Virus record (IMG/VR): IMGVR_UViG_3300008735_000002
Location: 1-64,000 of that record
DNA length: 64,000 bases
Source: a virus
Strand: one strand, 5' to 3'
This document shows, in pieces, positions 1 to 59,673 of the stretch (positions are counted from its first letter, which is position 1; the number at the start of each line of letters is the position of its first letter). Below the pieces are notes generated by a model. That model did no database searches and was not told the origin of the DNA. It worked only from the letters and a program-made list of their open reading frames with translations. A program made the translations under genes and the position numbers.

Positions 1-605
1 TCTTTCGGAATGCCGTCGGGTTTCGTGTGTTTCGTTTGGTCATCAAAGACCAAGTCACCCATTTCCACCCATGCATGAACGATAGGTTTCGGTGGCTTCT
101 CCCACTTGTCAGTTACCTTTCCATGCACAACCTTGAACTTACCCACGTTATTAAGATCCGGATGTCTTTTTGGCTTGCGACCAGGGCCGCCCTTCGTGAA
201 ATGATCGTCGAACCATTCTTCGGCTTTCTGAATTGCGAACGGAAAGCACATCCCTTGAGCTAGAACCTTCTGCTCGTGCAGCCCTTCTCGTAAACCCAAT
301 TCTCTCTCACGGTCTTCAACTTCTATTCTACCCATTTCTGCCCATTCTTTGGACGTTATGCCAATTTTGGCAAGCTCTCTATTAATGAGACTGGGACGGC
401 TCTGAGTAGACCCAACCGTGTCGTGAAGATATTTAGTTATTGAATTATTGTCCCATGGTAAGTCTTGAGGTTGAAGACCGAGACTGTCGGCTAGTTCCAT
501 TGCTTGCTTGATACCGTCAGGGCCTGAATCCATCAACTCTTTGAATTTATCATCGTACTCGGTGGATTCAATTAGAGCTCTTATGTATTCGCGGAGGAGG
601 TTCAT
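1..605 (-). CDS. LREYI-tagged protein with papain/transglutaminase-like C-terminal domain (3' end runs off window; not in ORF track)
   Basis: Hand translation from ATG at 605 is open to base 1: MNLLREYIRALIESTEYDDKF...QGMCFPFAIQKAEEWF...KFKVVHGKV...IVHAWVEMGDLVFDDQT. The G-x-C ... VVHG ... HAWVE pattern is typical of Cys-His-acid papain-like folds. Confidence 0.7.
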   Translation of the reverse strand, partial: MNLLREYIRALIESTEYDDKFKELMDSGPDGIKQAMELADSLGLQPQDLPWDNNSITKYLHDTVGSTQSRPSLINRELAKIGITSKEWAEMGRIEVEDRERELGLREGLHEQKVLAQGMCFPFAIQKAEEWFDDHFTKGGPGRKPKRHPDLNNVGKFKVVHGKVTDKWEKPPKPIVHAWVEMGDLVFDDQTKHTKPDGIPK

Positions 606-606
606 T

Positions 607-1152
607 TCATAATCCTATAAAGATAACGTCACCAGACGACGTGTAGTCTCGAACTAATGATTTCCAAACGCGTTTGGCAGCTTCTGAGGTACCTGAACCT
701 ATTGTACAGTGATGTGCTCCGATAAACACTCCGCCATTTCTTTTTGCGTACTCGCTGGCTTTATCTATGAATGCCTTGTAGATTTCTTTACCGTGGCCTT
801 TGCCGCGATTATCTTCATCATGGATCCATGCGTTTGCTACATCATAGAATGGAGGCGCGAACGGAGTACTTTCACCGGTTTCTTTCATAACCCACTCCCC
901 ATTTTCATCTCGTACTATTTCTGTTCTTGGCTTGGCATTTTTCATCCATTTCTCTTCGGCTTCAAGATACTCAGGCGTTTGCTTGATTTTATCAACGTCA
1001 GCTTGACATGCTTTGAAGCGAAGATTGCGACTGCCTTGGGCGTATCCAATTCTTCCCAGTTCAACTCGGAAATAATGCTCATCTCCTTTGTAGCTAAGAG
1101 AAGGAGCCTCAGCTAGTAGCTCTCTTATGTACTCACGCAGAGGATTCATCAC
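607..1152 (-). CDS. LREYI-tagged GNAT-like acetyltransferase
   Basis: N-terminus MNPLREYIRELLAE; acetyl-CoA motif A-like NRGKGHGKEIY near the C-terminus. Confidence 0.6.
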   Translation of the reverse strand: MMNPLREYIRELLAEAPSLSYKGDEHYFRVELGRIGYAQGSRNLRFKACQADVDKIKQTPEYLEAEEKWMKNAKPRTEIVRDENGEWVMKETGESTPFAPPFYDVANAWIHDEDNRGKGHGKEIYKAFIDKASEYAKRNGGVFIGAHHCTIGSGTSEAAKRVWKSLVRDYTSSGDVIFIGL

Positions 1153-1711
1153 AGTCTCCCGCTTTTACCAGCTCTTCAATCCCTTTCTGATCCCAGATAC
1201 AGCCTGATGCTACATCCCAGCCGTAATACCAAAAAAAATCATCATCGTTTCGTTTGCTCGAAAGGTATGGACATATCTCTATTCCCGAATAGTGTTCAGC
1301 AACCTTCGGCCAGTCGATCATCTTATCGAGTCCCTTGGTACCGTCAGGATCAGCAGGGTGGTTTACACTATACATCTTATTGAATTTTTCAAGGTGTTGC
1401 TCGTCTGGGATATGGAGTATGTGGTAGCCATCATCTTTAAGAACGACATTGTAGGTGCTGTCATATTTGTCATAGCCACCCGTCAGTCCAACCGTACAAA
1501 ACTCTTCCCATGTCTCCGAACTTCCGTCTTGGCACTCATACCAGAGGCCTTTTGGCTTGGAGCCGATCTTCTGAGAAAATCCACTCACCTGCGGTTTGGT
1601 ACCTGAACGAGTACCTCCTCGAGAATGGTGGATCCTCATCTTGTCTTGCGCATAAATCGGGAAATGAGATTCATTAAGAATTTCTCTTATGTATTCGCGG
1701 AGTGGGTTCAT
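1133..1711 (-). CDS. LREYI-tagged hypothetical protein (start moved to 1711)
   Basis: MNPLREYIREILNE begins at ATG 1711, which overlaps the upstream stop (ATGA). Contains KPKGLWY and WDVASGCIW motifs of unknown function. Confidence 0.65.
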   Translation of the reverse strand: MNPLREYIREILNESHFPIYAQDKMRIHHSRGGTRSGTKPQVSGFSQKIGSKPKGLWYECQDGSSETWEEFCTVGLTGGYDKYDSTYNVVLKDDGYHILHIPDEQHLEKFNKMYSVNHPADPDGTKGLDKMIDWPKVAEHYSGIEICPYLSSKRNDDDFFWYYGWDVASGCIWDQKGIEELVKAGDCDESSA

Positions 1712-2403
1712 AGTTCTACCCATCGGCCCATGTGCTGGATAGCAGCTATATTGTCCGGACCTTTCCACCGGTACATCTTTGTCTGTGGACTTTTTAGAAG
1801 AACATCTTTACCGTACGGATCCCAAGGAGTCTCTTCATTGTCTTCATCCCAAAAAGTCCCACCCTTGATACCTCTTACATACGCCTGCTGTTGCGAGCAA
1901 TTATCATTGCTGTTGCCTGGGGTGAGGTGGTCTTCTAAATCGTCGAGCTGAACCGGTTCGACGTCTGCACGATTCGTAAAGTAATAATTCCATACCTTGT
2001 TAGCTTCATATGAAACGCTACCCCTGTCTGGTGTTAACCCACTCCCTTTACTTGTAGCAACCTCCATCGCCAAATCATAAAGAAGTGGACCCCAGCCGCT
2101 TTCGGAAACGCTTACCCAGGTAACAGTGTAAGCACCCAAACATTCTCCCATCTCATTGCCGGTGGCGATCGTAGCTGATATTAAGCCAAGAGCTTTATCC
2201 GGGAACTTAGACTCGGTCCCGGCGGGACTAGTTACCTGAGGTGTCCCTGGCTCAGAGCCTTGTGGATTGAAATCATATAACTTTATCTCGAATGCATCTC
2301 CATAGTCTTCTATGGCGATATAATAACCACGCTTCTCAAATTCAGATAGACCTTGAGCGGCTTCTATCAACAGCTCTCTTATGTATTCGCGGAGTAGGTT
2401 CAT
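1708..2403 (-). CDS. LREYI-tagged GNAT-like protein
   Basis: MNLLREYIRELLIE; GWGPLLYDLAMEVA...SVSYEANKVWNYY resembles divergent phage GNAT folds. Confidence 0.55.
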   Translation of the reverse strand: MNLLREYIRELLIEAAQGLSEFEKRGYYIAIEDYGDAFEIKLYDFNPQGSEPGTPQVTSPAGTESKFPDKALGLISATIATGNEMGECLGAYTVTWVSVSESGWGPLLYDLAMEVATSKGSGLTPDRGSVSYEANKVWNYYFTNRADVEPVQLDDLEDHLTPGNSNDNCSQQQAYVRGIKGGTFWDEDNEETPWDPYGKDVLLKSPQTKMYRWKGPDNIAAIQHMGRWVEL

Positions 2404-3224
2404 CCTGGGCTCCAGAGTTCATTACGGCCTCTATCAAAAATAGGGATGCCAAGCTCTGTGGCCAGCTTAAAGATTTTCCCTATAACACCAGGAGCGTTGA
2501 CTCCTGCATTATCTTTAAACTTCTTGTCGCTTAAGCTTTGAACGCTTAACTTTATTGGCTCTACCCACTTACCGACAACAATTCCTATAGGCTTCCAGTT
2601 ATCTACAAGCGCTTCGTTTGTTTCACCGGCGATGCCCTTGTGCCATGTGGATTGATCTAACACATACGGCATATTCCTCGCCATCTTCTCAGCAAACTCA
2701 TCTCCACGCTTAAGTTGCCCATAGCGGCTAAAATCTTTTGATACGTGTGGAAGCTTATTCACACCCGATGATTTCTGTCTCTGTTCTTGCTCCTCCTCCG
2801 TATAGTCTGCATGCGGACCTGTATAGTCTGGCCACTTTCCACTAAAGAGTTGATCATGATCATTTGCGGCAAGTGTAATCCTACCTTTCACCCACAATCC
2901 TATTAGCATACCTGGAGGGTTTTGGAGTTTATCACCTGGTAAAGTCATAGTAGTTGATAGCTCATCTTTGCTTTTTCCTACGAGATATTCAAGACTATAG
3001 GCATCCTCTACCCAGTGAACGGTGTCCAGAGTAGAAAGCCACTGATGATCTGCATTTGCATTGAACGCGCGCTTGATCGCTTTACCCCCGCCCTTACCAG
3101 GATCACCACCAAAGAACATCTCTCCAGGCTCGCCGAATTCTTCTGAGGCAGCTGCAAGATCATGGACAAAACCCATGGGGTCTTCTTTTAGAATTTCTTT
3201 TATGTATTCGCGGAGAAGTTTCAT
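2400..3224 (-). CDS. LREYI-tagged protein, possible ADP-ribosyltransferase-like fold (start moved to 3224)
   Basis: MKLLREYIKEILKE at ATG 3224 (ATGA overlap). TVHW ... ELST ... NEALV spacing recalls an ART H-S-E arrangement (weak evidence). Confidence 0.4.
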   Translation of the reverse strand: MKLLREYIKEILKEDPMGFVHDLAAASEEFGEPGEMFFGGDPGKGGGKAIKRAFNANADHQWLSTLDTVHWVEDAYSLEYLVGKSKDELSTTMTLPGDKLQNPPGMLIGLWVKGRITLAANDHDQLFSGKWPDYTGPHADYTEEEQEQRQKSSGVNKLPHVSKDFSRYGQLKRGDEFAEKMARNMPYVLDQSTWHKGIAGETNEALVDNWKPIGIVVGKWVEPIKLSVQSLSDKKFKDNAGVNAPGVIGKIFKLATELGIPIFDRGRNELWSPG

Positions 3225-3694
3225 TTTGGATCCCTCCACCACTCGCCGCCTCGCGCCCTGTTGGGTTTGAAGCCGGCTCTTTTGTACCAAGACTTAAGAT
3301 CTTTGACACCAAGCTTTTCTGACCCGAAGGGGTGAGGGTCGAGGGACATAGGAACCTGATGTTTATCTGCCAATGCCACCAACTGATTCATGACTTTTGA
3401 AGCGAATCCTTTTCCTTCGCAAAGGCCGGGAGGCACGGTATGGATCGATCCGAAATGAATGGCACCATCCCAGATCGAAATATTGGTCATGACAAGACAC
3501 CACGTTCCCTCGATTTCTTCCATGGGCCAGTATCTATCACCCCGAAAGCCAATAGGGTTTTCTTTAGACATCGACTCGTACTCAGACATAAAAGCATCAA
3601 ACTGTTTTTTCAATTCTGGGCTCGGGCCTCTTTGTATGTTGATGGCCGCCTCTTCAGCAAGGAGTGCTTTTATGTACTGACGTAGTAAATTCAT
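3221..3694 (-). CDS. LREYI-tagged GNAT N-acetyltransferase (start moved to 3694)
   Basis: MNLLRQYIKALLAEE; EGKGFASKVMNQLVALADK (motif A) and LKSWYKRAGF (motif B). Confidence 0.8.
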   Translation of the reverse strand: MNLLRQYIKALLAEEAAINIQRGPSPELKKQFDAFMSEYESMSKENPIGFRGDRYWPMEEIEGTWCLVMTNISIWDGAIHFGSIHTVPPGLCEGKGFASKVMNQLVALADKHQVPMSLDPHPFGSEKLGVKDLKSWYKRAGFKPNRARGGEWWRDPK

Positions 3695-3695
3695 G

Positions 3696-4274
3696 CTAAG
3701 CAAAGCTCCCATAAATACGTTTGGTGACGATCGCAGAGGCCATTGCTAATTTTCTCTCGTAATAACAATCATCTAAAAATCTAATAAATTTTGGACCCAA
3801 AAATTCTTTTATCTTTTCCTCATCGCATACTGGTGGTACGCTAGAAGAACGTAAGATCTCTTCTATTTTCTCACCTGCCTCAATGAAGAATCCACCACCG
3901 TTTAGCAAGTCGAACATTTTGCCAACAAGCGCGCTCTTGGCTTCGCGTTTGCCCAGGCATCGCTCTTCCTGGCACGTTCCCAATAGTGCCATTTTATTTC
4001 CAAACGCAGTGGGTTTGTAAATGATGAATGCATCTGGAACTCCGTCGGGAGGAGTGTCGACATCAATCAAAAAGACACCCTTATACTTTTTGAGCCCGGC
4101 TGCGTTGGGCGCGCTCAAGTCCATGCCCAGGCTCAAGTAGGTGTTTGTGTACATGTCCCAAATCCGATCAAGCACATCAGCATCAAGTGATGCCAAGTCC
4201 GTATCCATCCATTGCATGCTAGGTAATGCTAATTCGATTAACAACTCTCTTATGTATTCACGGAACGGATTCAT
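3696..4274 (-). CDS. LREYI-tagged hypothetical protein, paralog of the C-terminal domain of 6261-7229
   Basis: MNPFREYIRELLIE; shares D-x-D..PD, K..I..I..VP.V..E..LG and Y.R...K..G patterns with the second domain of 6261-7229. Confidence 0.7.
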   Translation of the reverse strand: MNPFREYIRELLIELALPSMQWMDTDLASLDADVLDRIWDMYTNTYLSLGMDLSAPNAAGLKKYKGVFLIDVDTPPDGVPDAFIIYKPTAFGNKMALLGTCQEERCLGKREAKSALVGKMFDLLNGGGFFIEAGEKIEEILRSSSVPPVCDEEKIKEFLGPKFIRFLDDCYYERKLAMASAIVTKRIYGSFA

Positions 4275-5452
4275 TAGAAATACTTGGCTCCGATAGTCTT
4301 GACCTCTGGATGCTCCTCTGCCATCTTATCTTTCAAGTGACCGATCTCTTTTCGCATCATCTTTCCAAAATTCACGTTATCTCCTGGCTGGGCGACTGTT
4401 TCATAAAACTGGTCCATCAGCTTGCTAGCGACCCCTTGTCCTGTGGAATCTCCTCGAGTCTTCATATAATCGATGTACCACATGGTATTACCATCGCCGG
4501 ACTTACCTTGACTGTGATAATCTAAAAACCCAATAACACAGACATCGCTGACTCCCGGCACGATTTCTTCAAGAACTGGCTTCTTTAATCGCTTCCCGCT
4601 CTTTGAGTGCTTTCGCCAGTTTTCCCATTCCTTAAAATAAGCGTCACGGTGCGCTGGGGGTTCGGTTACTGAGGAGTCACAATAAGCAATACGTTTAACG
4701 TTGCTCGCGCGACTGTAGGTAAGCGGAGAATCGACCTCACGAAACTCGACAGACTCGTTTAGAAGGTCCATCGCTTCCATCAGGCCCAATGATCTCAAGT
4801 ACTGGTGGACGTTATCTTTATCCGACTTTGCCATGCCCTTCTTGTCAAGAAGCATGCTCTTGCGACTTCCTTTATCCCACCTGTATTCATTGACTTCTAT
4901 CAAGAGGTTCCTGATATAAGAGCGTAAAATAGACTCCATAACTGGATCTTCGAGTTCACAAGGTGTATCAAGAGCCTCTGCAACGAAATGTGGGATCGCC
5001 TCTAAGCCCAGTCCCTCGATCGTCTTTACAAAAGCTTCTAAGTGATTTGCTCTATCGTCCCAAACTTGCACAACCTCTAGATCAGGCATACCTTCTATAA
5101 ACTGCTTCATCATAGATGATTTCCACGGCTCGGTTCCACCGCCGGGCTTCAAGTGGACTTCGTCAAAAGACAAGCCTGCGCCAGCTATCAGTTCTTCCAC
5201 TCGGGCCGACAATTCGGGTGAAGCACCCCGGCCAGTCATAAGAACAGTGTACACTTCAGGATTCCCTATACTCTCCATCGCAGCTGATACGGTGCTACTA
5301 ATCCACATCCCGCTTGGGTCAACAACACAGGGCGGAGTGAGAGACTGAAGCGTATCGTACCACGAACCAATGTGACCTTCCCAGTCATCCGGATGCATCG
5401 GGCTCATAAATAAAGTAGCATCAAAATCGAATATGTGTAATTCTCTAATCAT
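4274..5452 (-). CDS. HAD-superfamily phosphatase fused through an internal LRSYIR tag to a GNAT domain
   Basis: HAD motif I IFDFDATLF, LMTGR, motif IV WDDR; internal MESILRSYIRNLLIE; C-terminal GQGVASKL GNAT motif A. Confidence 0.75.
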   Translation of the reverse strand: MIRELHIFDFDATLFMSPMHPDDWEGHIGSWYDTLQSLTPPCVVDPSGMWISSTVSAAMESIGNPEVYTVLMTGRGASPELSARVEELIAGAGLSFDEVHLKPGGGTEPWKSSMMKQFIEGMPDLEVVQVWDDRANHLEAFVKTIEGLGLEAIPHFVAEALDTPCELEDPVMESILRSYIRNLLIEVNEYRWDKGSRKSMLLDKKGMAKSDKDNVHQYLRSLGLMEAMDLLNESVEFREVDSPLTYSRASNVKRIAYCDSSVTEPPAHRDAYFKEWENWRKHSKSGKRLKKPVLEEIVPGVSDVCVIGFLDYHSQGKSGDGNTMWYIDYMKTRGDSTGQGVASKLMDQFYETVAQPGDNVNFGKMMRKEIGHLKDKMAEEHPEVKTIGAKYF

Positions 5453-6261
5453 CGTGCTTCCGCCAAAAGTAATTCACGAACGTAAAGCCTGACGTATTCT
5501 TCATTCTTCGACCTTTCACCCGGAAGTGCCGAACCGTATTCTTCCTCGTACCATCCTATTTCATCAGGTAACTCTTCGACAGACTCATCAGCGCCCACTG
5601 CGCTGATCACAATCGGGTTAATAATTTCACCCACGCCAATCGGGAGCGGAGGAATTGGAATACCTGTAAGCGAGAAAAATGCCATCGGAATAATAAAGTT
5701 ATCGAGAGCCTCTCCCACAACTATCCCTATCGCAATCGGCAAACCCTTCTTCAGTCCTCCAGCCAAGCCTTCTGCCTCAACAGCATTCCAAATTGCATCT
5801 TTGGCTTTACCTAAAAGCTTTATAGGATTAACTTTTTCATTAGCAGTCTCTAAAGCAGCAATTACCATTTGCTCAGAAATCTGATCTTCAAATTCTATGA
5901 TCTGTCTTTCGACGGCTTCTTTTCGTGCTTCAGTAGGAAGATCATTACCATCCCATGTTTTTGCGTTATCCCAGCCCCACGTATACCCCAATGCATAGTC
6001 CGCGGAATCTGCGCTATGGCCGACCTGCTGAGGACTTGGGTCTTGCGCTGACCAGTCAGCACGACGCTCAAACCTTCCTTCAATCGCGCCATCCAAAAAT
6101 TCCACCATGTCTTCATTAACTTCACGCTCTAGAACATGCCGCACCAAGTTTGGAGCCAGCCGTGTAAACACATCATCCATCATATCATCATAATCGTGTG
6201 TCTCAACATAGTCAGTAACACTACTCATAAGCGATTGTTTTTCTAACAGAAGACTTCTCAT
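5449..6261 (-). CDS. hypothetical protein with hydrophobic segment and C-terminal YVRLYVRELLLAE tag (start moved to 6261)
   Basis: ATG 6261 overlaps the upstream stop (TGATG); tag-like motif at the C-terminus. Confidence 0.6.
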   Translation of the reverse strand: MRSLLLEKQSLMSSVTDYVETHDYDDMMDDVFTRLAPNLVRHVLEREVNEDMVEFLDGAIEGRFERRADWSAQDPSPQQVGHSADSADYALGYTWGWDNAKTWDGNDLPTEARKEAVERQIIEFEDQISEQMVIAALETANEKVNPIKLLGKAKDAIWNAVEAEGLAGGLKKGLPIAIGIVVGEALDNFIIPMAFFSLTGIPIPPLPIGVGEIINPIVISAVGADESVEELPDEIGWYEEEYGSALPGERSKNEEYVRLYVRELLLAEAR

Positions 6262-7229
6262 CAACCACCACCCAAAAGAATCTTCATGTGGTCTCCACCA
6301 CAAGCACCGGAGATTCCGCGGCAATACCACGCTTCATAATCAGGCCCATAACGATCTGCGTACTTGGCTTCAGGATGTTTACCAACCCAGTCCACAGTCT
6401 TCCCCAGCGCTGCCTCTACAGCTTCTTTTGTGGGTACTGCTGGTACTCCATAGCGGGTTATCATAATATGCGCAATCTTTCCAGACATTTCACCGATTCC
6501 GCCAGCTTTTAAGTCCTCAGCGGTTTCTTCAAGATATCGATCAATTGCAGCTTGAGTACCGTCATGGCCCACAATACCCAGCTTAAATCGACCACCGCGC
6601 ATTTTACCACCACGAAAGTAATCCGGCTCAGGGTCTTCATCTATGTCTGCGCCCTTCATGATTGTATATTTCCCTGGGAGATCTGCGGGAGATTGAACCT
6701 TTATATTGCCATATGTCGCGGAAGTTTCGCCGTCAGAGGGCGTGAGCATAACATCTTTATACGCATTCTGTATCAGGTCGAATATTTCGTCATCTAAATC
6801 ACGAACTTCAGGAGGAGCATCTTCAGCAAAGTCTTCAGGTGAAAGAGGAACCGTCTTACCCTTCGGGGCGCCAAGATCTGCCCACGTCTTTTCCAAAATT
6901 ACATCCCTTATGTGCGCGCGTAAATCAGCTTCTTGCATCCGCACGTTATACGTACGTAAAGCAGCACCTGGGTGGGGTGCCAACTGATCCATCGTCTTTT
7001 TTAGAACGTCGCCTTCATTCCAGGTAGGCCCAGAATTTGTGCACTTATACTCGACGGTCTTTCCTTGATCGTCAGGTAATTCTTCTATCGAAAGAACGAC
7101 ACCCTCGCTGCCTTTATGCTTACAATTCGGGTTTACATTAACAATCGATTCCCCGACAACGGGCTCGTCTGTGTGACTTTGAAAAGTCTCATGCAGTACA
7201 TCTCGAATATACTCTCTTAAAAGATCCAT
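6261..7229 (-). CDS. two-domain LREYI-tagged protein
   Basis: MDLLREYIRDVLHE, a small beta-rich domain, then a second tag LRAHIRDVILE, then a domain paralogous to 3696-4274. Confidence 0.7.
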   Translation of the reverse strand: MDLLREYIRDVLHETFQSHTDEPVVGESIVNVNPNCKHKGSEGVVLSIEELPDDQGKTVEYKCTNSGPTWNEGDVLKKTMDQLAPHPGAALRTYNVRMQEADLRAHIRDVILEKTWADLGAPKGKTVPLSPEDFAEDAPPEVRDLDDEIFDLIQNAYKDVMLTPSDGETSATYGNIKVQSPADLPGKYTIMKGADIDEDPEPDYFRGGKMRGGRFKLGIVGHDGTQAAIDRYLEETAEDLKAGGIGEMSGKIAHIMITRYGVPAVPTKEAVEAALGKTVDWVGKHPEAKYADRYGPDYEAWYCRGISGACGGDHMKILLGGG

Positions 7230-7233
7230 CCAC

Positions 7234-7980
7234 TTATCCCCACAATACTGACATAAGTATTTCGTGGAGACGATGTTTTATCCCTTCTTTGCAGGTTTCT
7301 GGCGTCGCAGCACCACCATTTGACACTCTATATGCTGATATCTTCACATCTGGGGAATATTGCTTACAAAGTTGAGCAACTGCTTTGACATTTCTTTCAC
7401 TATCATCGTAAAAAATTAACTCTTCGGGCTGGTGCTGATCTAAGTAACCGGATAGGACCGATGCTTTTCCTTGGGGCGTTTCGCCATCCATATCACCCAC
7501 TGTATGTAACTGATCAGGTGATATGCTGATTCCATTATCATTCAAAAACTGAATGATCTGTTCCCTGTTCTGGGGCGCAACGTTCGCACCCTGCGCGGGG
7601 CTAAACATCGCTTTTTCTCCAGCTCTAGCTGTTACCACTAGCGCGATGGACTCTGGGTCTGCTTGCGCTTCGGCAAGCTTCGACAACATTGACCCAATTC
7701 CCTTCGAAAGCTCCATATCTATAGACGCCGTCTCTGAATAGTCGATCTCATCTTCGGTCCCTTGTGGGGTCGGCAAATCTTCAAAGAGTGCAAAATTTGC
7801 AGAGTCTAACCACCAAAATCCCTGATCTTTTCTGACATATTGAATATTATTGTCTAGAAGAAAGTCTTCAAACCCGAGGTCTTCAGAACCATCAGGTAAA
7901 AGACGCCTAATACCGATCGTAGAAACGGTATGAGCCAATGTGTCATCAAAATCAAAGGCTATGATTCTCTTAATAGGCAT
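7234..7980 (-). CDS. HAD-superfamily phosphatase
   Basis: AFDFDDTL (motif I), VVTAR (II), K, FYDDS (IV). Confidence 0.75.
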   Translation of the reverse strand: MPIKRIIAFDFDDTLAHTVSTIGIRRLLPDGSEDLGFEDFLLDNNIQYVRKDQGFWWLDSANFALFEDLPTPQGTEDEIDYSETASIDMELSKGIGSMLSKLAEAQADPESIALVVTARAGEKAMFSPAQGANVAPQNREQIIQFLNDNGISISPDQLHTVGDMDGETPQGKASVLSGYLDQHQPEELIFYDDSERNVKAVAQLCKQYSPDVKISAYRVSNGGAATPETCKEGIKHRLHEILMSVLWG

Positions 7981-8022
7981 ATCCTTAACTATATTGTAAG
8001 AAAACTGTGTTGCTTGTACAGA

Positions 8023-9693: not shown

Positions 9694-10905
9694 ATGGCTT
9701 CGGGAACCTGGGCCCTTAGAGGAACAAAATTTAATGACTATTCGGGATTATCAGAATTAGATTTACTGTATATTCTTGAAACTCTCGTCCCAGACGAGAA
9801 ACAAAAAGAGGAAAACAAAATGTCAACTATTGATGAAAAAAATGACGATACATACATCAACACCCCAGACGCTGGTGATGATTTTGATTTTGTGATGGCT
9901 TATGATGATGATCCCGCCGAAGCAGATGAAAGACTTCTACCCGACAACGAAGCAAGATCAGCTATTTCTTGTGGGTTCGTGGGCGTCGGAGGAGGCGGAG
10001 GAAAACTTGCAAAGGCTTTTCTTGATATCGGCTTCAGCAAAACAATATTAGTCAACACCACTGAAAAAGATCAACCTGGTGGACTAGATCAAAATCACTT
10101 TGTACTAGTGCCGGGTGCAGACGGTGTCGGAAAAGACATAACTCTTGGCAAGCAGGTTCTCCAAGAAAATAGCGCGTTTGTCGAAGACGCCGTTCGTACA
10201 CGACTCGGGCATGTCGACTGGCTGTTCGTTCTTGCTGGCGGTGGCGGGGGAACAGGAAGCGCTTCTCATGAATTGCATGGTTCTCTTAGCAGATATCTTT
10301 CTTCGATTGAAGCGTCTGGAAAAGTGGTTTATATCGTGACGAAACCCACAGCCCAGGAAATGCTAAACCCTACAATTTCTAAAAACTACAAATCCCTTTC
10401 AGAAGATATTGCAGGAACCCCCCACATCATCATCGATAATGAAAAACAATTACAGCTGTTAAGAGGGAAAGTGGGAATGATGAACATGTTCCCATCCGCT
10501 AATAGAAACTTTGCAAAACTTCTAGCGCAAGTCCTCAAGCTGGCTGATGAGCATACTGAAATCCAAACATTCGACAGCAAAGATCTTGAAAAGTGTCTTA
10601 GCACTGATGGTCGGATGGTGATTGGTAGTACAGTGGTTCGTGATGTAACAAGAAATGACTTAGGTTCCTTAGTTTTCCAGGGGTGCTTACGCTCTTCCCC
10701 GTGTCCTGTTCCATCAGGCGGTGGTGAGACGGGTACCTTACTGCTTATAGTTGACGGCAACATGGCATGCGACCCTGACGTTAGTAGAAGACTCGAGTCC
10801 GCGTTCTCTTATGTGGGGGGGCGAGCAAATACGCTGTTCTCAGGAGTGTATGTAAAAGAAGGAATCCCTGGCTTAATCGCGATTACGTTACTCGGCGGAC
10901 TGTAA
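9694..10905 (+). CDS. Tubulin/FtsZ-family GTPase (TubZ/PhuZ/CetZ-like)
   Basis: GVGGGGGKL, GADGVGKD, signature GGGGGTGS, IIIDNEK, T7-like FDSKDL. SD-preceded starts at both 9694 and 9820. Confidence 0.9.
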   Translation: MASGTWALRGTKFNDYSGLSELDLLYILETLVPDEKQKEENKMSTIDEKNDDTYINTPDAGDDFDFVMAYDDDPAEADERLLPDNEARSAISCGFVGVGGGGGKLAKAFLDIGFSKTILVNTTEKDQPGGLDQNHFVLVPGADGVGKDITLGKQVLQENSAFVEDAVRTRLGHVDWLFVLAGGGGGTGSASHELHGSLSRYLSSIEASGKVVYIVTKPTAQEMLNPTISKNYKSLSEDIAGTPHIIIDNEKQLQLLRGKVGMMNMFPSANRNFAKLLAQVLKLADEHTEIQTFDSKDLEKCLSTDGRMVIGSTVVRDVTRNDLGSLVFQGCLRSSPCPVPSGGGETGTLLLIVDGNMACDPDVSRRLESAFSYVGGRANTLFSGVYVKEGIPGLIAITLLGGL

Positions 10906-10908
10906 AAA

Positions 10909-11784
10909 ATGGCGCTCACAGAGCAAAGACTACTACAAATAATCAAAGAAGAAGTTCTGCACCATCAAGAACAAAAGATAAATGAAGCGATGGCCGGACT
11001 TGTCCTCGAGGGTATCTATGACCCCGGAATCCTAAAAGCTGTCTTCATGGCAGGTGGTCCAGGAAGCGGAAAAAGTAAAACCGCGGAAATAATTTTTGGT
11101 GGTGGTGCGATTGAAAAAGCCGCCTTTCAGGCAGGAACGACAACGGGTCTTCGTGTCATTAATAGCGACCCTGCATTTGAAGAATTTCTTAGACAAGCTG
11201 GTATATCTCCTTCTGATCTAAAAGATATGACTGATGAAGAGTTTGAGGCTATCACGGACCCACCCGACTCGCCTCGTGGGAGAGCAAAGAAATTAAAGTC
11301 AACAGCTCAGCGAGCAGCGGGAATTGGAAGAATCGGAATGATCGTTGATGGCACCGGTCAGGACTTCAAGAAAATGTCGGCTAAGAAAGAAGCTGCCGAA
11401 ACGTTGGGCTATGACACGTATATGGTTTTTGTAAACACCACGTTAGAAAAATCCCAAGAACGAAACCTGAATAGAGACAGGAAACTAAAACCTGAAACAG
11501 TAGAAGAGATCTGGACGAATGTCCAAGCGAATATGGGAGCCTACCAAAGCCTCTTCGGGGTCGGAAACTTCATTATCATTGATAATACAGAGTACACGTG
11601 GGACGATGCGGCATCATCAGCAGCTGCGGCGGCGCAAGCGTTTATCGATGCTCCGGTCCAAAACCCGATTGGTAGACAATGGGTCGAAGATGCAATCACA
11701 GCAAAAGGCGCAGACCCCGATGACCCATGGGTTGCAAAGAAGATTTCTGCGTTGTTAGACACTCCAGCTAGCCGACAAGCTTAG
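10909..11784 (+). CDS. P-loop kinase (zeta-toxin/AAA_33-like) with tag-like N-terminus
   Basis: KAVFMAGGPGSGKS Walker A, INSD, MIVDGTG; N-terminal RLLQIIKEEVL...INE. Confidence 0.75.
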   Translation: MALTEQRLLQIIKEEVLHHQEQKINEAMAGLVLEGIYDPGILKAVFMAGGPGSGKSKTAEIIFGGGAIEKAAFQAGTTTGLRVINSDPAFEEFLRQAGISPSDLKDMTDEEFEAITDPPDSPRGRAKKLKSTAQRAAGIGRIGMIVDGTGQDFKKMSAKKEAAETLGYDTYMVFVNTTLEKSQERNLNRDRKLKPETVEEIWTNVQANMGAYQSLFGVGNFIIIDNTEYTWDDAASSAAAAAQAFIDAPVQNPIGRQWVEDAITAKGADPDDPWVAKKISALLDTPASRQA

Positions 11785-23156: not shown

Positions 23157-23386
23157 TATCGCCCCTCTATCAATGCCACACCAGTTGCAGAATAATAACT
23201 ATCCAGCAACCTCTCCTCAAATTTATTTAACTGCTGCTTTTTTGTCTTAGGGTCTCTTACAGAAAATTTTGAGCGCGATTCCGAAGGTAAAGTACAAAGC
23301 AGCATTTTTTTCAAATCAATCCAACTGTTTATAAAAAGCATCGGCCCTAGCTGAATGGCTTGTTGCGTTATTTCTTTCTCTGTCAT
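23153..23386 (-). CDS. hypothetical protein
   Basis: Coupled ORF. Confidence 0.5.
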   Translation of the reverse strand: MTEKEITQQAIQLGPMLFINSWIDLKKMLLCTLPSESRSKFSVRDPKTKKQQLNKFEERLLDSYYSATGVALIEGRY

Positions 23387-25297: not shown

Positions 25298-25733
25298 TCC
25301 TAAATGTAATGTTAAGAAGATAGTGACGAGGTGCTATCTTCATAAGTTGCCAGTCTTTCAACGTGCTATCTTCGCACGAAAAACCACACTCTCCCTTTAG
25401 CGTCAAATTAACTTTCTTATCGAGGTGCATCGACTTATGAAGCCGTTGCAGCATTTCTTGCGCTACAGCGGTTACTTCAAAAGATATTGCCATATCTTGA
25501 CTGGTTTGTGAAGTAATGGTGTGAATACCCCCAGAGATTTTTGCAATGTCTAAGGGATCATCGGCACTGGATATAAAGAGCTCATGGCTGTCTGCGCTGG
25601 GTTGCTCGTCAAGATACTCAGACGAGACACCCATCATCTCTAAAAGGTCATCCGACATGATAATATTGCCCATGTCCTTTTGAGCACGTTCGTACTCCTC
25701 ATTTATTACTGTCATATTATTATCGGTGCTCAT
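25278..25733 (-). CDS. hypothetical protein
   Basis: Packed ORF. Confidence 0.55.
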   Translation of the reverse strand: MSTDNNMTVINEEYERAQKDMGNIIMSDDLLEMMGVSSEYLDEQPSADSHELFISSADDPLDIAKISGGIHTITSQTSQDMAISFEVTAVAQEMLQRLHKSMHLDKKVNLTLKGECGFSCEDSTLKDWQLMKIAPRHYLLNITFRSDNVVF

Positions 25734-26118
25734 ACCCTAACTCTCCCAACAAAGCAACATCATCGAAAATATCATCGCATCTCGCAGCATACTCTACATC
25801 AAGCTCAGTAACTGCGTCAAGATCATGCGTCCAGACCTCTATTAACATTTCCATGCCGTCGATGGTGATTTTTCCGTTATGACCGGATTGCGCTTCATCT
25901 TCTAGCAATTCTTTCAAAAACCAATTACGGGTTTCAACATCTTCAAATATAAATTTTCTTGCAAGTCGCTCGGGGGCAGCGACAATCGTCCATTCACTCT
26001 TTTCAGGAACTAAGGGCACATCAGCAGATTCTCTAACTAACCCGAATAATTCAAATTCAGGACCAGCGGTAGTTTCCTTTTCCTTCAAGTAATCTTTCAT
26101 TAGAGAATTTAGCATCAT
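25720..26118 (-). CDS. pterin-4a-carbinolamine dehydratase (PCD/PhhB)-fold protein
   Basis: RLARKFIFED, AQSGHNGKITI, VWTHDLDAVTELDVEYAARCD. Confidence 0.75.
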   Translation of the reverse strand: MMLNSLMKDYLKEKETTAGPEFELFGLVRESADVPLVPEKSEWTIVAAPERLARKFIFEDVETRNWFLKELLEDEAQSGHNGKITIDGMEMLIEVWTHDLDAVTELDVEYAARCDDIFDDVALLGELGYEHR

Positions 26119-45581: not shown

Positions 45582-45592
45582 AGTGTTACTAA

Positions 45593-45979
45593 CTATGCAT
45601 TAAGACGCTCACAAATAATCCCATGTTTCTTTACATAGGCATCAAAAAATTCCTTATGATCCACGCCAGCCAAAACAACAATCGCCAAAAAATAATTGAA
45701 CGCATCAATCATTTCTTCTAAAAATTCCTCACGATCGAATTCTGGCACACCGTAAGTCGCTTCACGATGATTCTTCCAATTCTTTAAGTGAAGTAAGGCC
45801 TCAAACAGTTCTTCCATTCCCCGGAATGCAAATTCCCGAATAGCCTGTTGGTTCTTTTTCTTGCTAAGATCCACTGGCCAGGGAGGATACGCATCAGGAA
45901 TGCGCTCGTTGATTAAGCTCATGAATTCTTCTCGTAATGAGAATACTTCTTCCAGCTTATTGTTCGACAACTTCTTCAT
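45593..45979 (-). CDS. all-alpha NTP pyrophosphatase (T4 gp56 dCTPase/dimeric dUTPase/MazG-like; start moved to 45979)
   Basis: MEELFEAL...KNWK...EEFLEEMIDAFNYF (two ExxE/ExxD clusters). Confidence 0.8.
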   Translation of the reverse strand: MKKLSNNKLEEVFSLREEFMSLINERIPDAYPPWPVDLSKKKNQQAIREFAFRGMEELFEALLHLKNWKNHREATYGVPEFDREEFLEEMIDAFNYFLAIVVLAGVDHKEFFDAYVKKHGIICERLNA

Positions 45980-59424: not shown

Positions 59425-59673
59425 TTATTTTTTAGCTATTTTTGCGCCGCCAAAAGCTGAAGCGTTTGCCTTCTCGGCATCCTTACGCCTTTTCCTTCTT
59501 TCTCCAGAAGGACCGCGACCTAAGGGAACCATAGGCCCCGGGACGCCACCAGAACTTTGCTCATCATGGTGGCTCTCATCATCATCTTCCCTCTCATCCT
59601 CTGCACTTAGATCAGGTTCACCCAGAACTTCTTCTTCAATCAAGAGTCGTATGTATTCCCGAAGGCTATCCAT
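59425..59673 (-). CDS. small LREYI-tagged protein
   Basis: MDSLREYIRLLIEE, then an acidic and a basic segment. Confidence 0.65.
   Translation of the reverse strand: MDSLREYIRLLIEEEVLGEPDLSAEDEREDDDESHHDEQSSGGVPGPMVPLGRGPSGERRKRRKDAEKANASAFGGAKIAKK

Follow-up and report, generated by a model that had tools for sequence, protein, structure and literature searches.

A near-invariant 14-residue leader on an array of unrelated enzyme-like genes is a probable capsid-targeting propeptide in an uncultured T4-like jumbo phage lineage

The window analysed here, the first 64 kb (64,000 nt) of the 119-kb IMG/VR virus record IMGVR_UViG_3300008735_000002, opens with an operon of eleven minus-strand genes (positions 3–7980) most of whose products share a short N-terminal leader and are unrelated in what follows it. 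Genes of the record lie nearly all on the minus strand. Successive genes of the operon, between the HAD gene that starts at 7980 and position 3, are joined by 4-nt ATGA overlaps, by 1-nt overlaps, by one 17-nt overlap, or are separated by gaps of 1–4 nt. The leader, M-[NKD]-[LP]-[LF]-R-[EQ]-Y-I-[RK]-x-[LIV]-[LI]-x-E, heads eight of the eleven genes, at starts 605, 1149, 1711, 2403, 3224, 3694, 4274, and 7229. The eleven genes, and a tagged gene elsewhere in the window, are as follows.

3–605, minus strand: leader-tagged gene with its 3′ end cut by the contig end; leader, spacer domain of about 110 aa, and a Cys...His...Asp/His domain (QGMCFPFA ... HAWVE.GD)
607–1149, minus strand: leader-tagged gene, 180 aa; GNAT-type R-x-x-G-x-G motif by eye
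1133–1711, minus strand: leader-tagged gene, 192 aa; body in phrog_8582, a PHROG of unknown function
1708–2403, minus strand: leader-tagged gene, 231 aa, the most widespread cargo family; leader a detached N-terminal helix, body GNAT-like
2400–3224, minus strand: leader-tagged gene, 274 aa
3221–3694, minus strand: leader-tagged gene, 157 aa; GNAT-like motif by eye
3696–4274, minus strand: leader-tagged gene, 192 aa
4274–5452, minus strand: fusion of an untagged HAD phosphatase domain, V-M-E-S, an internal leader (4895–4936), and a GNAT-like domain; Pfam HAD_SAK_1 (E 2.6e-13) and weak GNAT matches
5449–6261, minus strand: acidic protein of 270 aa with a leader-like C-terminus; the start of the HAD fusion gene is overlapped by ATGA
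6261–7229, minus strand: fusion of two tagged modules, namely leader plus a module of about 85 aa, M-Q-E-A, a degenerate leader (6891–6929), and a module of about 220 aa
7234–7980, minus strand: untagged HAD-like gene, first of the operon; DxD motif FDFDDTL, no Pfam family above cut-off
59428–59673, minus strand: isolated leader-tagged protein of 82 aa among replication genes, acidic then basic; found with a leader hidden Markov model (HMM)

The copy at start 7229, the eighth, reads MDLLREYIRDVLHE, and in the gene starting at 605 the terminal Glu stands at position 13. Inclusion of the ninth copy, at start 59673 (MDSLREYIRLLIEE; open reading frame (ORF) of 82 aa, leader HMM 12.4 bits, E 0.005), gives the consensus M-[NKD]-[LPS]-[LF]-R-[EQ]-Y-I-[RK]-x-[LIV]-[LI]-x-E. 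At the DNA level, the exact 16-mer CTCCGCGAATACATAA is common to four starts (605, 1711, 2403, and 3224), three of which agree over 19 nt. Other copies lie away from N-termini: one at 4895–4936 (E-S-ILRSYIRNLLIE) separates the HAD domain from the GNAT-like domain, a degenerate one at 6891–6929 (E-A-DLRAHIRDVILE) joins two modules that occur as separate tagged genes in relatives, and a leader-like one at 5458–5496 (YVRLYVRELLLAE-AR-stop) ends the 270-aa protein. This last protein contains a long hydrophobic stretch rich in Gly, Pro, and Ile and is 1 nt out of frame with the start of the following gene; its C-terminus could be a frameshifted fusion or a genuine C-terminal tag. No further leader copy is present elsewhere in the 119-kb record. 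Behind the leaders, BLASTP between the bodies yields no match better than E 0.1. A first-pass annotation, made from the letters and their translations, had described seven consecutive coupled genes with a common N-terminal tag, an exact 16-nt sequence in four of them, unrelated proteins beyond the tag, and recurrences at 7229 and 59673; all of these features are present, on the minus strand.

Relatives were found by matching a degenerate DNA pattern for the first ten leader codons, carrying about 40 bits, to IMG/VR contigs. The pattern matched 25 contig stretches, many with several tandem matches, and the recurrence of the leader is not due to chance. Six-frame reading of these stretches revealed arrays of up to ten tagged genes, and in the complete 293-kb relative G001 all ten pattern-matching copies fall in one array that runs across the record's ends. 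Among 75 unique N-terminal leaders, positions 1–14 are near-invariant and conservation is absent from position 15 onward. The same end of conservation at Glu14 is seen in the top 120 of the 1645 homolog clusters that the 231-aa family forms in a set of 5.8 billion proteins, all of them unnamed and devoid of a Pfam domain; the leader pattern is matched in 109 of these 120 clusters, and the remainder carry close variants. In AF2 models, the leader forms a separate helix of low confidence (residues 3–12 or 3–14) ahead of the folded body. Two other kinds of N-terminal or docking element were considered and rejected: a Sec/Tat-type signal, as the leader is short, charged, and amphipathic, and a docking plug for a receptor-binding protein, as the bodies are enzyme-like and bear no likeness to fibers.

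The same record encodes head machinery of the T4 type, comprising a gp23-type capsid gene (PF07068, Gp23; E 1.3e-75 in Pfam), a T4-type portal gene (PF07230, Portal_T4; E 1.5e-77), and a prohead protease (PF03420, Peptidase_S77, the T4 gp21 family; E 5.9e-27), the last encoded at L002:10721–11341 on the minus strand. The T4-like head with a gp21-type protease presupposed by the first-pass comparison with T4 is therefore encoded here. A large terminase and a DnaE-type polymerase are also encoded. Peptidase_S77 is present in all three relatives with an estimated completeness of 40–100%, and was not found in two relative fragments of 25–32% completeness. In G001, two gp23-like capsid genes stand in tandem (176269–180147). 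The closest capsid proteins in GenBank, 35–50% identical, belong to Microcystis phage Mel-JY01, Flavobacterium phage immuto, uncultured megaphages, and Rhodothermus RM378, while complete IMG/VR relatives measure 284–293 kb. From this distant capsid identity together with the size of the complete relatives, the record is recognized as a fragment of a distant T4-like jumbo myovirus of about 290 kb. The array DNA and three cargo proteins had no BLAST match among 50,697 GenBank phage records, and no cultured relative was found there.

The end of the leader has the form of a gp21-type cleavage site. Within the first 16 residues, [LIVM]-x-E occurs at positions 8–16 in 72/72 unique leaders, L12-x-E14 in 62 and I8-x-E10 in 43 of the 72, in line with the L/I-x-E ending noted in the first pass, and conservation stops exactly at Glu14. 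A related motif marks the head proteins themselves. In the proteins of the portal-to-capsid module, [LI][LIV]-x-E was seen 17 times versus 5.1 expected from composition (3.3-fold), as opposed to 68 times versus 69.8 expected in the remaining 109 proteins; the enrichment is thus confined to head-core proteins. The S77 protease begins MSDLKLLTE, and its LLTE parallels LIE-9 of T4 gp21. The capsid protein carries a conserved [IV]-L-R-E about 30 residues before a conserved VRR block, a spot where, by comparison with T4 gp23, the propeptide cut would be expected. Internal leader copies add a second signature. In about 15 unique internal copies, Glu replaces Met at leader position 1, and in most of them this Glu is preceded, two residues earlier, by V, L, M, I, or Y, yielding h-x-E-[S/A] and then the leader. 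This is the arrangement expected should the fused modules be separated by cleavage at either flank of the leader.

The protein at the scaffold position, p496 (496 aa, acidic, coiled-coil-like, encoded just upstream of the capsid gene), starts MSTNLYREAIAE, the second-best non-array match to leader positions 2–10 among 130 genes, a likeness that is suggestive only. The top non-array match is the N-terminus, MMLNSLMKDYLKE, of a pterin-4a-carbinolamine dehydratase homolog encoded at window 25723–26118 on the minus strand (PF01329, E 1e-10). An internal LLREYV in another protein, p283, is conserved in the closest relatives only and was taken as coincidence. Complex prediction with the leader (residues 1–40 of the 231-aa family) and the N-terminal 130 residues of p496 returned a score of 0.00, which, as it was run without controls, is evidence neither way.

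Comparison across relatives showed that array content and order vary, as the first-pass annotation had proposed for swappable cargo; invariance was not seen. In the window, the 231-aa gene precedes the 192-aa gene, whereas it follows it in L010; in L016, the 180-aa gene precedes the 231-aa gene. Blocks of DNA homology between the window and its relatives begin exactly at the leader ATG, as had been predicted for cargo shuffling by recombination, and end 27–31 nt into the following leader. Fusions are likewise assembled from recurring parts: the HAD–leader–GNAT-like architecture of 4274–5452 is repeated in L010 and L024, and of the two modules fused in 6261–7229, the one of about 85 aa stands alone as a gene in L010, L011, and L024 and the one of about 220 aa in L007. 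The leader DNA is also constrained below the level of the peptide. The Y7-I8-R9 codons are TAC-ATA-AGA in 84–90% of N-terminal copies versus 23–34% genome-wide, and a bias for CGY codons at Arg5 is present in N-terminal copies only; Leu codons are mixed, and codon use is freer in internal copies. No conserved RNA fold surrounds the leader start, where folding energy equals that of shuffled sequences, and the bias is thus not explained by RNA structure. A reasonable explanation is that it reflects a conserved crossover core.

What follows the leader is diverse. The relatives and the window together hold 38–47 cargo families over 26 loci, with about half of 38 families being singletons. A Pfam scan of 66 representative tagged proteins from relatives identified HAD_SAK_1 in four and RNase_T in two, and PolyA_pol, DUF192, PS decarboxylase, Zeta_toxin/AAA_33, GNAT, and ART-PolyVal once each. 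Enzymes of these types are typical of phage–host conflict and of packaged polyvalent proteins (PMC5512222). In the window, Pfam and PHROG scans of the ten array proteins detected just the HAD domain, weak GNAT matches, and one PHROG without a function, and two cargo families searched as profiles had no match among PDB sequences. The 231-aa protein (1708–2403) has no Pfam match. Its AF2 model (pTM 0.81) places the leader helix at residues 3–12, and its best 50 VIA matches are nearly all acyltransferases of the GNAT superfamily, with Z 4.3–6.0, under the tool's confidence range. The protein of 607–1149 also has no Pfam match, and has orthologs in 13 loci. For 1133–1711, leaderless homologs of the body, with 30–41% identity, occur in Mycobacterium, Gordonia, and Microbacterium phages, all annotated hypothetical; the nearest named ESM Atlas clusters are ART-PolyVal and AcrIF11, at 0.84, a language-model lead in which the ART assignment is weak. 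The 2400–3224 protein has no match in Pfam, PHROG, or GenBank phages. For the truncated protein of 3–605, one Cys, two His, and two Asp are retained without exception in nine homologs, and its fold matches, to NTAQ1, TglA, and NlpC/P60 peptidases, are weak (Foldseek, E about 0.4; poor model, pLDDT 64). The cargo identities guessed in the first pass are thus borne out in part, with one body that looks GNAT-like; a HAD domain is also present, and the papain/transglutaminase-like and ART assignments stand as weak leads.

Complete relatives carry a second leader in addition. Its MKITKRQLRRIIKE-like sequence is found on 26 genes in G001, 32 in G004, and 16 in G005, with no control matches; G001 and G004 are complete relatives and G005 a fragment. 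The G001 genes, located in L034 and L045–L046, encode mostly small proteins where they were read. This MKITKRQL leader (MKITKRQLRRIIKEE), a second class on 26–32 genes in the complete relatives, differs in sequence from LLREYIRELLxE, whose cargo is a different, enzyme-rich set, and yet keeps the same 14-residue layout, with hydrophobic residues at 3, 8, 11, and 12, basic ones at 5 and 9, and a terminal Glu14. The N-terminus of a head-module protein, p175 (MAKVSREMLKGLVKE here), is conserved and is similar to this leader. Two leader classes of one layout thus coexist in one genome, and the present array is one half of a larger system.

The heptamer ATAGTTA precedes eight gene starts by 12–49 nt; among them are the first gene of the operon (12 nt, with the element at 7986–7992), both sheath genes, the head–tail adaptor, and other virion genes. 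Of its 12 coding-strand copies, eight fall no more than 60 nt from a start, versus about 6% expected.

ATAGTTA copies: window 7986–7992, 23196–23202, 45590–45596; genome 75260–86658

The element is probably a promoter element of the virion-gene type, and its placement suggests that the operon is co-regulated with virion genes, with a timing presumed from theirs. The sheath genes are two tandem full-length paralogs (L001:13016–19410; genome 77016–83410).

Taken together, we consider it fairly probable that the leader M-N-L-L-R-E-Y-I-R-E-L-L-x-E is a capsid-targeting propeptide of the kind represented by the T4 capsid-targeting sequence (CTS). In the mechanism that we infer, from late expression through docking, cleavage, and ejection to the host targets, the operon would be made late, alongside virion genes, and the amphipathic leader helix would dock each protein on the scaffolding core of the assembling prohead. 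The gp21-like Peptidase_S77 would then cut after Glu14 (L-L-x-E), perhaps also after Glu10 (I-R-E), freeing the cargo inside the head; in fused modules, the leader between them and the preceding h-x-E-[S/A] site would allow both halves to be released. The cargo would be ejected along with the DNA, to act immediately on the host. Injected proteins would include GNAT-like acyltransferases, HAD phosphatases, and a Cys-His hydrolase-like domain, to which the relatives would add a CCA/poly(A) nucleotidyltransferase, DEDD exonucleases, a zeta-toxin-like kinase, and an ART.

Several observations weigh against capsid targeting. The leader HMM, run against all ORFs of G000 and G001, returned no significant match to a head protein, and the likeness of the leader to p496 and to the T4 CTS amounts to 5–6 identities in 9–10 residues. 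The array and the head genes are separated by about 80 kb in this record and by about 120 kb in the complete relative. The cargo in the window is mostly acidic (isoelectric point 4.2–5.8 for most), in contrast to the basic IPI–III of T4; T4 Alt, on the other hand, is an enzyme and is likewise packaged. The Y7-I8-R9 codon bias is an added nucleotide-level constraint beyond what a peptide model provides, the late-promoter role of ATAGTTA is itself presumptive, and the lineage is uncultured, known from sequence alone.

Some of these observations would suit a leader that serves as a docking helix for a partner other than the prohead, be it a host protein or a cytoplasmic phage scaffold or hub, such that many enzymes are gathered at one place with neither cleavage nor packaging. 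The leader is short, amphipathic, detached from the domain behind it, and borne by many unrelated enzymes; its cargo consists of acidic, enzyme-like proteins and not of DNA-coating ones; and the array is remote from the head genes. Adjoining the array on the opposite strand, moreover, is a gene with a weak Tubulin/FtsZ GTPase match (window 9694–10905, plus strand; PF00091, E 1.2e-4, below cut-off), directly after which lies a Zeta_toxin/AAA_33 kinase-like gene (10909–11784, plus strand). We nevertheless regard such a docking role as unlikely, since it leaves unexplained the invariant terminal Glu with [LIVM]-x-E in every leader, the h-x-E-[SA] site ahead of internal copies, the motif enrichment specific to the head core, and the positional match to the T4 CTS. 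The codon bias and the homology blocks lead in another direction, namely that the leader works mainly as a DNA or RNA element, whether a recombination boundary or a translation-initiation element of the coupled operon, with the peptide as a passenger. The TAC-ATA-AGA preference of N-terminal copies, its relaxation in internal ones, and the permuted order of blocks that begin at the leader ATG are all in keeping with this. However, Leu, Glu, and Arg5 codons vary freely while their amino acids are fixed, the peptide is kept in internal copies, where no initiation occurs, and the absence of a conserved RNA fold, with folding energies equal to shuffles, speaks against an RNA element. As a replacement for a peptide function, this explanation is quite improbable; a DNA or RNA role is compatible with capsid targeting and is more likely an added layer.

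A more prosaic origin, in which the genes are diverged paralogs of one ancestor, conserved just at the N-terminus and sharing no signal function, would account for their tandem arrangement and for the several bodies that are GNAT-like by eye or by fold. It fares poorly with what lies behind the leader: distinct Pfam families (HAD, RNase_T, PolyA_pol, zeta-toxin kinase, PS decarboxylase, DUF192, and ART), no pairwise similarity between bodies, and one body family that is found leaderless in unrelated phages, the actinophages. Nor does paralog decay resemble the abrupt passage from near-invariance to none at residue 14/15. Common descent of the whole genes is accordingly a very remote prospect.

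Capsid targeting by a cleaved leader has its precedent in T4, where the CTS of IPI, IPII, and IPIII and the Alt propeptide are removed by the prohead protease gp21 (PMC9026906, PMC3012670, PMC8442874). The CTS of IPIII is MKTYQEFIAE (PMC8442874); in the T4 CTS, targeting depends on residues 4 and 7, and processing on residues 8 and 10 (PMC9026906). Aligned in register, MNLLREYIRE matches MKTYQEFIAE at 5/10 positions (M1, E6, F/Y7, I8, and E10), in a peptide too short for statistics, and the likeness may possibly have arisen by convergence on an amphipathic helix plus a cleavage site. The parallels extend to the system as a whole: in both, a short N-terminal leader ending in [L/I]-x-E is placed on unrelated proteins in a phage with a gp23/gp20/gp21-type head, the cargo is non-conserved and variable between relatives, and Alt demonstrates that enzymes can be cargo. 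The differences are equally distinct. The T4 CTS has 10 residues, whereas the present leader has 14 with two nested candidate sites (E10 and E14). About 10 tagged genes per genome form one coupled operon here, as compared with three scattered in T4, and their products are mostly acidic enzymes rather than small basic proteins. Unlike the T4 CTS, the leader also acts as an internal linker in fusions, with a second upstream site, and is joined in the complete relatives G001 and G004 by a second leader class. Finally, packaging and cleavage, established for T4, are here predicted.

A second likeness is to the polyvalent proteins and packaged effectors (Iyer et al., 2017, PMC5512222), with which the array shares a range of conflict-type enzyme domains (ART-PolyVal-type ART, HAD, kinase, nucleases, and peptidases) and a predicted course of packaging, injection with the DNA, and release by proteolysis. 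In contrast to polyvalent proteins, the cargo here is encoded mostly as separate small genes, each with its own leader and occasionally fused in twos, and release would be effected by the head protease at leader-encoded sites as opposed to an in-built peptidase domain.

The CTS principle itself is known from T4, and its use by T4-like phages as a means of varying the packaged proteins has already been proposed in work on T4 (PMC9026906, PMC3012670). What appears new is the 14-residue leader, the scale and strict conservation with which it is used in an uncultured jumbo lineage, its enzyme cargo, and its apparent use as a cleavable linker, together with the coexistence of two leader classes and with direct evidence of cassette permutation at the leader. 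Conceivably, and more tentatively than capsid targeting as such, these phages operate two separate loading leaders, LLREYIRELLxE for about 10 enzymes and MKITKRQLRRIIKE for about 30 small proteins, which would differ in the prohead-core site that they address, or in amount or timing; the leader might then be at once a head address, a protease-cut linker that allows two cargos per leader, and a DNA crossover site between phages.

If the two-leader proposal is true, the injected proteome of a whole uncultured jumbo-phage clade would be readable from sequence. If the leader is a head address, at least about 10% of the genes in phages of about 290 kb, counting both leader classes, could be assigned to the injected arsenal. 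This would furnish a candidate list of the enzymes for first-minute host takeover and anti-defense in a lineage that has no cultured member, comprising acyltransferases, phosphatases, RNA-repair-type nucleotidyltransferases, nucleases, a kinase, and an ART. A portable 14-residue tag with a defined cut site might also prove useful for filling T4-type capsids with proteins. More broadly, the CTS principle of T4 would be old and widespread across the T4 superfamily, and would here have been scaled up to a shuffling cassette system with cleavable polyproteins.

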